From: Enterobacteria phage FL68 Tallahassee/FL/2012
Direction: 5' to 3' (one strand)
Length of the DNA stretch: 5,486 nt
Sequence record: KF044309.1
The position numbers were made by a program, and so were the translations under genes. Numbering within the stretch: the first letter of the stretch is position 1; each line of letters opens with the position of its first letter. This document shows, piece by piece, positions 1,975 through 5,486 of the stretch. Below the pieces are notes generated by a model. The model saw only the letters and a list, made by a program, of their open reading frames with translations, was not told the origin of the DNA and made no database searches.

Positions 1975-2426
1975 ACTCTAACGAATCTGCTGTTGCCTTC
2001 GCTACTGCTCTCGCATCTATCAAGCTTATTCAGGCTTCATCTGTGCTGGACCTGACCGAAGACGACTTCGACTTCTTAACCCGTGACCGTGTATGGATTG
2101 CCACTGACCGCTCCCGTGCCCGCCGCGCTATTGAGGCCTGCGTATATGGTACATTGGACTTTGTCGGATACCCTCGCTTTCCTGCTCCTGTTGAGTTTAT
2201 TGCTGCCGTCATTGCTTATTATGTTCATCCCGTTAACATCCAGACAGCATGTCTTATTATGGAAGGCGCCGAGTTCACCGAAAATATTATCAATGGTGTT
2301 GACCAGCCAGTTAAGGCCGCTGAACTATTCGCTTTTACCTTGCGTGTACGCGCCGGAAACACTGACCATGTTACACATGCAGAAACTAACGTACGTGAAC
2401 AATTACGTGCTCAAGGAGTAATGTAA
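1971..2426 (+). CDS. D: External scaffolding protein D
   Basis: 151-aa product, very close to phiX174 gpD as recalled (TALASIKLIQAS, VLDLTEDDFDFLT, VWIATDRSRARR, EACVYGTLDFVGYPRFPAPVEFIAAVIAYYVHPVNIQTACLIMEGAEFTENIING, PVKAAELFAFTLRVRAGNTD). ATG overlaps the C stop (ATGA). Confidence 0.95.
   Translation: MNSNESAVAFATALASIKLIQASSVLDLTEDDFDFLTRDRVWIATDRSRARRAIEACVYGTLDFVGYPRFPAPVEFIAAVIAYYVHPVNIQTACLIMEGAEFTENIINGVDQPVKAAELFAFTLRVRAGNTDHVTHAETNVREQLRAQGVM
2146..2421 (+). CDS. E: Lysis protein E (MraY inhibitor), embedded in the +1 frame of gene D
   Basis: ATG 2146 with GAGG at 2133-2136. 91-aa product MVHWTLSDTLAFLLLLSLLLPSLLIMFIPLTS..., matching phiX174 E in length and in the N-terminal transmembrane segment (WTLWDTLAFLLLLSLLLPSLLIMFIP). 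The track's 112-aa version starts at an upstream GTG. Confidence 0.9.
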   Translation: MVHWTLSDTLAFLLLLSLLLPSLLIMFIPLTSRQHVLLWKAPSSPKILSMVLTSQLRPLNYSLLPCVYAPETLTMLHMQKLTYVNNYVLKE

Positions 2427-2506
2427 TGGCTAAAGGCTCTCGTCGGCGTTCGCCGTCCCGCTCTAAAGGTGCTCGCCTCTGGTATGTTGGCGGCACACAA
2501 TTCTAA
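2426..2506 (+). CDS. J: DNA-binding (packaging) protein J, small basic protein
   Basis: Hand translation gives the 26-aa product MAKGSRRRSPSRSKGARLWYVGGTQF. The KGARLWYVGG core is conserved in phiX174 and G4 J proteins, and the short length matches my recollection of the G4-like J. Strong AAGGAG Shine-Dalgarno at 2413-2418; the ATG overlaps the D stop (TAATG). Too short for the ORF track. Confidence 0.85.
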   Translation: MAKGSRRRSPSRSKGARLWYVGGTQF

Positions 2507-2512
2507 TCTTCT

Positions 2513-2528
2513 AGGGGCTTCGGCCCCT
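2513..2528 (+). terminator. J-F intergenic stem-loop: 6-bp GC-rich stem AGGGGC/GCCCCT closed by a UUCG tetraloop, followed by CTATTT
   Basis: Perfect inverted repeat 2513-2518 / 2523-2528 with loop TTCG. Sits between the J stop and the F Shine-Dalgarno, where phiX174 has its inefficient terminator and mRNA-stabilising hairpin TJ. Confidence 0.45.
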
Positions 2529-2545
2529 CTATTTAAGGATATAAA

Positions 2546-3829
2546 ATGTCTAACGTTCAAACTTCCGCTGACCGTATTCCTAACGACCTTTCTCACCTCG
2601 TCTTCGAGGCTGGCAAAATCGGTCGTTTAAAAACTATCTCTTGGACTCCAGTTGTCGCTGGCGACTCATTTGAAACTGAAATGGTAGGCGCTATTCGCCT
2701 TTCCCCACTTCGTCGTGGCCTTGCCGTCGACTCTCGCGTGGATATTTTCTCCTTCTACATCCCGCATCGTCATATCTATGGTCAACAATGGATTGACTTT
2801 ATTAAAGCTGGTGTTAATGCTACTCCGCTGGCTCCTGTTACCTGCTCCTCTGGCTGGGACTCTGCTGCCTATCTTGGCACTATTCCATCATCTACACTCA
2901 AGGTTCCTAAATTCTTACATCAAGGATACCTGAATATTTACAATAACTACTTCAAACCGCCGTGGGATACTGACCTCACTTACGCTAACCCATCTAACAT
3001 GCCTGAACAGGATTATAAATGGGGTGTTCGTGTCGCTAACTTAAAATCTATCTGGACCGCTCCTCTGCCTCCTAACTCTAAAATATCAGAGACTATGACC
3101 ACTGGCGCTACGTCTATTGATATTATGGGCCTGCAAGCTGCTTATGCTAAATTGCATACCCAACAAGAACGTGACTACTTCATGACTCGCTACCGCGATA
3201 TTATGAAAGACTTCGGCGGACACACCTCCTACGATGGTGATAACCGCCCTCTGCTGCTTATGCGCTCTGAATTCTGGGCCTCTGGCTATGACGTCGACGG
3301 TACTGACCAATCTTCATTAGGTCAGTTCTCTGGTCGCGTCCAACAGACATTCAATCACAAAGTACCTCGCTTCTATGTACCTGAACACGGCGTCATTATG
3401 ACTCTCGCTGTTACTCGCTTCCCTCCTACTCATGAAATGGAGATGCACTATCTTGTCGGCAAAGAATCTTTAACTTATACCGACATCGCTTGCGACCCTG
3501 CTCTTATGGCTAACTTGCCTCCGCGCGAAGTATCCCTTAAGGAATTCTTCCACTCTTCGCCGGACTCCGCTAAGTTCAAAATCGCCGAAGGTCAATGGTA
3601 CCGCACGCAGCCTGACCGTGTCGCATACCCTTATAACGCTCTTGATGGCTTCCCGTTCTATTCTGAACTGCCATCTACTGACTTAAAACAACGTGTCTTA
3701 GTTAATACTGATAACTACGATGAAATCTTCCAGTCTATGCAACTCGCACACTGGAATATGCAAACCAAATTTAACACTACTGTCTATAGACACATGCCTA
3801 CGACTCGTGATTCAATCATGACGTCATAA
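2546..3829 (+). CDS. F: Major capsid protein F
   Basis: 427-aa product, collinear with the phiX174 and G4 F proteins as recalled (MSN(I/V)QT, GDSFE, LRLSPLRRGLA, GYLNIYNNYFK, IDIMGLQAAYA, QERDYFM, SGYDVDGTDQ, SLGQFSGRVQQT, KFKIAEGQWYR, LPTTRDSIMTS C-terminus); same length as phiX174 F. AAGGA Shine-Dalgarno at 2535-2539. Confidence 0.97.
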   Translation: MSNVQTSADRIPNDLSHLVFEAGKIGRLKTISWTPVVAGDSFETEMVGAIRLSPLRRGLAVDSRVDIFSFYIPHRHIYGQQWIDFIKAGVNATPLAPVTCSSGWDSAAYLGTIPSSTLKVPKFLHQGYLNIYNNYFKPPWDTDLTYANPSNMPEQDYKWGVRVANLKSIWTAPLPPNSKISETMTTGATSIDIMGLQAAYAKLHTQQERDYFMTRYRDIMKDFGGHTSYDGDNRPLLLMRSEFWASGYDVDGTDQSSLGQFSGRVQQTFNHKVPRFYVPEHGVIMTLAVTRFPPTHEMEMHYLVGKESLTYTDIACDPALMANLPPREVSLKEFFHSSPDSAKFKIAEGQWYRTQPDRVAYPYNALDGFPFYSELPSTDLKQRVLVNTDNYDEIFQSMQLAHWNMQTKFNTTVYRHMPTTRDSIMTS

Positions 3830-3840
3830 AGCCTATAACG

Positions 3841-3878
3841 TGACAGGGGGAAAAATTTTAATTTTTCGCCCCCTGTCA
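3841..3878 (+). other. F-G intergenic long hairpin (10-bp GC-rich stem plus 5-bp A-T extension, with a 2-nt bulge); candidate terminator and/or complementary-strand origin element
   Basis: TGACAGGGGG (3841-3850) pairs with CCCCCTGTCA (3869-3878); AAAAA (3851-3855) pairs with TTTTT (3862-3866); CG at 3867-3868 is bulged. The F-G intergenic region is where phiX174-type phages carry a terminator (TF) and their complementary-strand initiation signals, primase-dependent in G4 and PriA-dependent in phiX174. Function is inferred from position only. Confidence 0.4.
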
Positions 3879-3928
3879 GGTTGAACAAGCGCAAGCGCGT
3901 TAGCTGCCTAACTTAAAAGGAAACTCAA

Positions 3929-4478: not shown

Positions 4479-5486
4479 ATGTTTGGTGCAATCGCTGGCG
4501 GTATCGCCTCATCTCTTGCTGGCGGACTCATCAACAAAGCCTTTGGGGGCGGTCAATCCGCCTCCTCTACTGGCGTTCAAGGTGATGTCCTCGCTTCTGA
4601 CAATAACGTAATCGGTGCTAATGATGCTGGTATCAAATCCGCTATTCAAGGCTCTAATCCGCCTAATGGCCAACAAGCTGCTCCCAATGCTATTTCGGGC
4701 GTTCTCGCTGACACTGGCAAAGACGCCCTATCTTCAATCACTGGCGCTGGCGTTAATAAACTTATGGAAAAAATCGGACTATCTAAAACTGCTGCTGATA
4801 AAGGCAAGGACACAAAGGATTATCTTGCTGCTGCATTCCCCGAACTCAACGCGTGGGAACGCGCTGGCTCTGGTGCTTCGTCTGCTGGCATGGTTGACGC
4901 TGGCTTCCAAAACCAAAAAGAATTAACTCGCATGCAGCTTGACAATCAAAAAGAAATCGCTAAGATGCAAAACGACACACAAAAGGATATCGCTGGTATC
5001 CAATCTGTCACATCCCGGCAAAATACTAAGGATGCTGTCTATGCTCAAAACGAGATGCTCGAATATAACCAAAAAGAATCTATGTCACGCGTTGGCTCTA
5101 TTCTCGAAAACACAAGCCTCACCAAACAACAACAAACTTCTGAAATTATGCGGCAGATGCTTACTCAAGCTCAAACCGCAGGTCAACATTTTACAAATGA
5201 CCAAATCAAAGAACTTACACGAAAAGTTGGCGCTGATATTGATTCTGTCCGCGCTAACACTGACCGTACACATGTAGAAACTCAACGTTCAAAACAGGAA
5301 GTTCAAAACTCTCGTTATGCTTCCTCACAAGTCGGTAAAACCGCTAAAGATGTCTCTAATGCAGTTACTGATACAGCTAGTTCTATTGTTGATTATTTTC
5401 GTGGTATTGATAACAAAGTGGCAGACGCTTATAACAACTATTTCAAAGATGGTAAATCCGACGGAATCGGGTCGAACATCAAATAA
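4479..5486 (+). CDS. H: DNA pilot protein H (minor spike, DNA-translocating tube)
   Basis: 335-aa product collinear with phiX174 gpH as recalled ([56 protein letters not shown](R/K)[48 protein letters not shown]). Gly-rich N-terminus and a Gln-rich coiled-coil-like middle. Stop TAA is the last three bases of the window. Confidence 0.95.

Follow-up and report, generated by a model that had tools for sequence, protein, structure and literature searches.

The stretch of DNA analysed here (5,486 nucleotides, hereafter the window) comprises the whole genome of a G4-like microvirus: it matches phage FL76 (KF044310, Gequatrovirus talmos, Bullavirinae) with 99.9% identity over all 5486 bases and phage ID2 with 97.7% identity. 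Positions 2507-2545 are exactly the entire spacer between genes J and F (39 nt), which reads, up to and including the start codon of F, UCUUCU-AGGGGC-UUCG-GCCCCU-CUAUUU-AAGGA-UAUAAA-AUG (Table 1). A GGGGC-UUCG-GCCCC hairpin had been predicted immediately before F, and we find it at 2513-2528 with one additional outer A-U pair, so that the stem comprises six pairs, five of them G-C, around a 4-nt loop closed by C2518-G2523; this stem and loop lie within the dimensions of intrinsic terminators (that is, at least 5 bp and 3-8 nt). The description of what follows, a weak U-tract and then the Shine-Dalgarno sequence of F, also proved correct (CUAUUU, then AAGGA).

Table 1 Features of the J-F spacer and its flanking genes in the window.
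Feature	Positions	Strand	Source
Gene J (DNA-packaging/core protein), upstream cistron	2426..2506	+	ORF list, KF044310 annotation
Gene J stop codon TAA	2504-2506	+	ORF list, KF044310 annotation
Unpaired 5' spacer UCUUCU, from J stop to hairpin; variable in relatives	2507..2512	+	Sequence, alignment, per-sequence folds
Hairpin 5' arm AGGGGC	2513..2518	+	Folds, covariation counts
UUCG tetraloop, C-G closed (cUUCGg type)	2519..2522	+	Folds
Hairpin 3' arm GCCCCU	2523..2528	+	Folds, covariation counts
U-rich tail CUAUUU, short and interrupted; presumed release site of a leaky terminator	2529..2534	+	Sequence
Gene F Shine-Dalgarno AAGGA, 6 nt before ATG	2535..2539	+	Sequence
Gene F (major capsid protein), downstream cistron	2546..3829, ATG 2546	+	ORF list, KF044310 annotation

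The J-F hairpin, with 4 T among the 8 bases past the 6-bp stem, goes unreported in a consensus terminator scan; the U-tract (CUAUUUAA) thus contains 4 U in 8 where at least 5 are called for, and is borderline, at 5 in 8, when counted from the GC core (UCUAUUUA). We take the miss as a sign of the weak U-tract and not as an argument against the hairpin. A search of the whole window with Rfam covariance models, at E-values up to 10, gave no match overlapping 2507-2545; Rfam has no family for the element.

Stability of the hairpin and other structures in the genome

Folded as RNA, the J-F hairpin has a minimum free energy of -11.7 kcal/mol (ViennaRNA), alike in contexts of 41 nt and 26 nt, and the same hairpin is retained when 215 nt are folded; as + strand single-stranded DNA, it reaches -6.9 kcal/mol with a z-score of -2.4. 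The original prediction, made from general knowledge of RNA folding, had called the structure exceptionally stable. The calculated energy upholds this in a relative sense only, given that a hairpin within gene H folds at -16.4 kcal/mol: among all 24-nt segments of the + strand of the genome, the J-F hairpin is joint second in stability, with the gene H hairpin ahead of it and one in the H-A spacer level with it.

Local shuffling gave z-scores of -1.2 (41 nt) and -2.4 (26 nt), and 24 of 200 shuffles of the 41-nt spacer folded at least as stably as the native sequence; such shuffles are a weak test of this hairpin, because runs of four G and four C residues pair in nearly any order. Across 30 dinucleotide-preserving shuffles of the whole genome, a mean of 0.6 segments per genome folded at or below -11.7 kcal/mol, and the chance of such a match within the given 39-nt spacer is therefore expected to be well below 1%.

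Several other structures occur in the window. In the H-A spacer (4-62), a promoter-like site, TTGACA-18-TATCAT (4-33, 11 of 12 matches), is directly followed on its 3' side by a hairpin, GCCUCC-AAAUCAUC-GGAGGC plus UUUCUU (34-59, -11.7 kcal/mol, z-score -4.7), which is the sole match of the terminator scan. The GGAGG Shine-Dalgarno sequence of gene A (ATG at 62 according to the FL76 annotation; the ORF list begins the frame at 32) forms the 3' arm of this hairpin, and the layout mirrors the overlap of pA and T_H known from the literature on phiX174. The gene H hairpin, the most stable short hairpin of the + strand (4545-4565; GGGGGCGG-UCAAU-CCGCCUCC, z-score -3.75), could be either a structured element, of RNA or of DNA, or a side effect of the Gly/Ala-rich coding sequence. 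We take the phiX174 sequence GGAGGCGG-UCAAAAAG-CCGCCUCC to lie at the corresponding position of gene H. This sequence is contained in the phiX174 reference genome (supplement, bioRxiv 10.64898/2026.07.25.740675). Folded as DNA, the F-G spacer (3830-3928) forms a long hairpin, GACAGGGGG(A/T-rich loop)CCCCCUGUC, together with two small hairpins (-20.7 kcal/mol, z-score -3.9); the region is annotated as the complementary-strand origin in G4 and holds T_F and the PriA site in phiX174. Inside gene A, positions 500-517 match exactly the core of the phiX174 viral-strand origin (CAACTTGATATTAATAAC).

Conservation and covariation among relatives

J-F spacers were gathered from 12 IMG/VR genomes, about 20 Bullavirinae in GenBank (including phiX174, G4, alpha3, phiK, St-1, WA13, ID21, ID32, NC28, NC29, ID52, ID12, ID8, ID41, ID18, EMCL318, ID204 and Lilleput), FL76 and three metagenomic contigs. 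A hairpin in the same position was present in 24 of 24 relatives (21 aligned Bullavirinae and three metagenomic), which span the genera Gequatrovirus, Sinsheimervirus and Alphatrevirus. In every relative, it is a GC-rich tetraloop hairpin located 4-8 nt past the stop codon of J and 3-7 nt ahead of the Shine-Dalgarno sequence of F, and the three loci returned by a metagenome scan for divergent relatives each carry the standard GGGGC-UUCG-GCCCC form. The Shine-Dalgarno motif [A/G]AGGA was found in all 21 aligned relatives, with AGGA invariant and G at the first position only in phiX174 and NC11. The tails of the relatives are equally short, with 2 to 5 U in 8; in the WA13-like clade of alpha3 relatives, the tail ahead of the Shine-Dalgarno sequence is merely UAU, and classical intrinsic termination may accordingly be weak or absent in some phages that retain the hairpin.

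The hairpin itself is built on five alternative stems (GGGGC/GCCCC, GGGCC/GGCCC, GGCCC/GGGCC, GAGCCC/GGGCUC and GUGGGAC/GUCCCAC; Table 2), with energies of -10.4 to -14.9 kcal/mol except in NC29; lower energies of whole spacers (down to -15.6 kcal/mol in EMCL318) include extra predicted pairs beyond the hairpin. NC29, a natural isolate, has lost one G of the 5' arm without compensation and is left with a 4-bp hairpin, GGGC-UUCG-GCCC (within 2522-2593 of NC29, -7.1 kcal/mol), and some loss of stability is therefore tolerated.

Table 2 Variant forms of the J-F hairpin in relatives.
Phage	Hairpin
NC28, phiK	GGGCC-UUCG-GGCCC
alpha3	GGCCC-UUCG-GGGCC
St-1	GAGCCC-UUCG-GGGCUC
ID52, ID12	GGGGGC-UACG-GCCCCC
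G4, ID41, ID8	GUGGGAC-CGCG-GUCCCAC
Lilleput	GUGGGAC-CACG-GUCCCAC

As a plain MAFFT alignment of the spacers placed the hairpins of G4, alpha3 and St-1 out of structural register, it was replaced by a loop-centred alignment of 22 nt with 18 distinct sequences. Centring on the predicted loop biases the alignment somewhat toward structure, which is mitigated by controls with slid partners and by RNAalifold. In this alignment, both sides have changed at five of the seven stem pairs, and standard pairs fill 89 of the 90 cells of the inner five pairs. The covariation score was 0.326, compared with 0.096 in column shuffles (reached by 0 of 500), and every covariation measure falls when the 3' partners are slid by 1-3 columns. 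RNAalifold, run independently on the same loop-centred alignment, recovered the same helix with compensation at four of six pairs. Stem positions that vary without compensatory changes would have spoken against the original prediction; what we observe is the opposite, a stem rewritten with compensation, and the aligned spacers show that a base-paired J-F structure is under selection across the Bullavirinae. We consider this conservation with covariation to be the decisive evidence against a chance origin of the hairpin.

The C-G pair that closes the loop is invariant in the 18 distinct relatives, and the four loops observed (UUCG, UACG, CGCG and CACG) all fit YNMG, a stable RNA tetraloop motif that includes cUUCGg and uCACGg (PMC2346598). 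The combination of YNMG loops with a fixed C-G closure suggests RNA, and not the viral DNA, as the target of selection.

T_J as the published counterpart, and alternative readings

The 16-nt hairpin AGGGGCTTCGGCCCCT is identical in 16 of 16 bases to phiX174 nucleotides 969-984, and the coding sequences of J and F on either side can be aligned with those of phiX174. On the basis of this identity in sequence and context, the J-F hairpin is the base-for-base counterpart of phiX174 T_J, an element that, together with its roles, has been in the literature on phiX174 and G4 since the late 1970s to early 1980s; it is thus an ordinary element, already described, and nothing new. T_J is the Rho-independent terminator of the phiX174 J-F spacer and blocks 20-40% of transcription (bioRxiv 10.1101/2020.03.05.979765). 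By RNA-seq, T_J, T_F and T_G each stop 20-40% of the transcriptional current, all three rank in the weakest quartile among E. coli terminators, and the predictor RibEx picks exactly UUUUAAUUGCAGGGGCUUCGGCCCCUUACUUGAGG in phiX174 (bioRxiv 10.1101/2020.03.05.979765 and its supplement). Read-through of T_J measured by qPCR fell from 68% at 37 C to 34% at 42 C (PMC3335065). The same source, where it cites Hayashi, Hayashi and Muller 1983 on phiX174 and G4, describes transcripts ending at T_J as the most stable and reports faster decay when the T_J structure is disrupted (PMC3335065). The suggestions that the hairpin could act as a leaky terminator and as an mRNA-stabilising 3' end therefore agree, by homology, with the published functions of the identical element in phiX174 and, for stabilisation, also of that in G4.

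More recent work counts four hairpin-dependent, Rho-independent terminators in phiX174, T_J among them, in the J-F, F-G, G-H and H-A spacers, and in saturation mutagenesis only 14.6% of single-base changes in these terminators reduced fitness (bioRxiv 10.64898/2026.07.25.740675), so that, in the laboratory, the phage has no strong need of the element. Among the rows listed in that source, phiX174 nucleotide 1000 is tolerant (bioRxiv 10.64898/2026.07.25.740675). A change two bases beyond the T_J hairpin, C987T, which is proposed to lengthen the T-tail, recurs when phiX174 evolves in chemostats (PMC3606162). The tail of the window (CUAUUUAAGGA, 2529-2539) resembles phiX174 985-994 as it stands after C987T (UUACUUGAGGA to UUAUUUGAGGA).

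We regard it as likely that the hairpin in the window is the T_J of this phage, that is, the leaky terminator and mRNA stabiliser of phiX174-type microviruses. Termination and stabilisation would here operate by analogy with phiX174 and G4, as described in the literature on those phages. Transcription would start from upstream promoters that are counterparts of phiX174 pB and pD, and, once the host RNA polymerase has passed the end of J, the nascent RNA would form the 6-bp, GC-rich cUUCGg hairpin. Because the tail is short and interrupted, only a minority of polymerases would release at CUAUUU, and the remainder would read through into F, G and H, which would produce a step-down in mRNA dosage from the B-K-C-D-E-J block to the capsid and spike genes. 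Transcripts that terminate here, or read-through transcripts that are trimmed back, would end in a very stable hairpin, which may block 3'-to-5' exonucleases and so give rise to long-lived D-J messages. Stem-loops at 3' ends are generally known as barriers to exonucleases in bacteria, and it is from this knowledge that we infer the barrier step at the J-F hairpin. What the literature on T_J drawn on here reports is the stabilising effect, with no mechanism for it.

In the WA13-like phages, the tail decays to UAU, yet the stem is kept, as are the YNMG loop closed by C-G and the spacing of 3-7 nt from the Shine-Dalgarno sequence. The primary purpose for which the hairpin is conserved might therefore lie outside termination, either as a fixed structural insulator or standby platform by which the rate of F translation on read-through mRNA is set, or purely as an exonuclease barrier (with 3' ends generated by trimming); we consider this unlikely. 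The translational form of this reading, which takes up the remaining original suggestion, a modulator of F translation, holds that the hairpin insulates the ribosome-binding site of F from upstream coding RNA, or serves as a platform for standby ribosomes, and that termination is a by-product. It draws on the short and constrained distance between hairpin and Shine-Dalgarno sequence (3-7 nt in three genera, against tails that contain anything from 2 to 5 U in 8), although this proximity may simply follow from a spacer length of 30-45 nt. In silico, with upstream RNA included, mutants in which an arm was replaced by its complement raised the predicted cost of opening the region from the Shine-Dalgarno sequence to the AUG by 0.2-2.0 kcal/mol, a cost that was back at the wild-type value in the double mutant with compensating arms; however, the effect is small, and its sign reverses for RNA that begins just before the hairpin. 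Covariation gives nothing specific to such a role, and published experiments on phiX174 already explain the element by termination and by the stability of mRNA. It is thus rather improbable that the hairpin is kept mainly for F translation, and we treat an effect on translation as a possible secondary role.

A role of the palindrome in the single-stranded viral DNA, whether as a secondary cleavage site for A/A*, a contact for packaging or the J protein, or a priming signal, is highly unlikely in our view. In its favour, the + strand forms the hairpin as DNA too (-6.9 kcal/mol, z-score -2.4), and phiX174 986-987, just 3' of T_J, are reported to lie within an extra-origin A/A* cleavage site and to change repeatedly in chemostats (PMC3606162). 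However, the window has ATTTAA where the tail of phiX174 has ACTTGA, a match to the origin core CAACTTGATA, so that the putative cleavage core, unlike the hairpin, is not conserved; an A/A* secondary cleavage site at the tail of the window was rejected for want of the ACTTGA core. In addition, all loop variants fit a motif documented for RNA tetraloops, and d(TTCG) is not known to have extra stability comparable to that of the RNA loop. The complementary-strand origin of G4, moreover, is annotated in the F-G spacer, where the hairpin of the window is much larger.

It is extremely unlikely that a longer helix is the real element, in which AUCUU (2506-2510) would pair with AGGAU (2536-2540), sequester the Shine-Dalgarno sequence of F and leave the UUCG hairpin as a cap. 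Such a helix appears in the minimum-energy spacer folds of EMCL318, G4, Lilleput and ID18, but it is absent from both the minimum-energy and the centroid structures of the window and does not exist in the phiX174 and alpha3 clades; in ID41 (UUACU) and ID52 (UUUUU), its 5' partner is altered with no matching change in the invariant Shine-Dalgarno sequence, and the helix was rejected as not conserved. Finally, the probability that the hairpin is a functionless GC-rich palindrome is negligible: its local z-score is only -1.2 at 41 nt, with 24 of 200 shuffles folding equally well or better, but three genera keep it in place and compensate the changes in its stem, such hairpins are rare in whole-genome shuffles, and experiments have been published on the identical element of phiX174; the covariation result excludes chance.

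Beyond annotation, the element matters little. In this model phage family, it would set the step-down in mRNA dosage from the scaffolding, lysis and packaging genes to the capsid and spike genes. The five stems, four YNMG loops and short tails of the relatives constitute a series of natural variants that could serve to separate termination from stabilisation at T_J.

Comparison with known systems

With respect to cUNCGg/YNMG hairpins in general, the UUCG loop and C-G closure of the window fit the class, the characteristic three-dimensional fold of the loop (U-G trans-wobble pair, syn G) being predicted from sequence; compared with other members, the tetraloop here merely caps the stem of a terminator and stabiliser, and it neither has a known tertiary or protein contact nor implies one. 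The arrangement shares with the intrinsic terminators of E. coli a GC-rich tetraloop stem followed by U residues, located past a stop codon and on the transcribed strand. Unlike canonical E. coli terminators, it has a short and interrupted U-tract (4 in 8 after the full stem), lies within an operon and abuts the next ribosome-binding site, where it would attenuate transcription and not end it.

The J-F hairpin of G4, which belongs to the same genus (Gequatrovirus), occupies the same position and is of similar stability (-13.1 kcal/mol), and the downstream sequence UCUAUUUAAGGAUA is common to both phages. Its stem (GUGGGAC-CGCG-GUCCCAC) is, by contrast, wholly different, with 7 bp and a CGCG loop in place of UUCG; the G4 form is the compensated alternative from which most of the covariation signal comes.

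The closest likeness is to phiX174 T_J (Hayashi et al. 1981, 1983, 1989; Logel and Jaschke 2020), which has the same flanking genes on the same strand and the identical 16-nt hairpin AGGGGCUUCGGCCCCU (-11.8 kcal/mol, compared with -11.7 kcal/mol in the window), followed in both phages by a short, imperfect U-tail and then the Shine-Dalgarno sequence of F. The two differ in the distance from stop codon to stem (6 nt in the window, 4 nt in phiX174) and in the tail, which is UACUU-GAGGA in phiX174 and CUAUUU-AAGGA in the window, where it has one U more. The window therefore carries the phiX174 sequence form of T_J within a G4-like genome.
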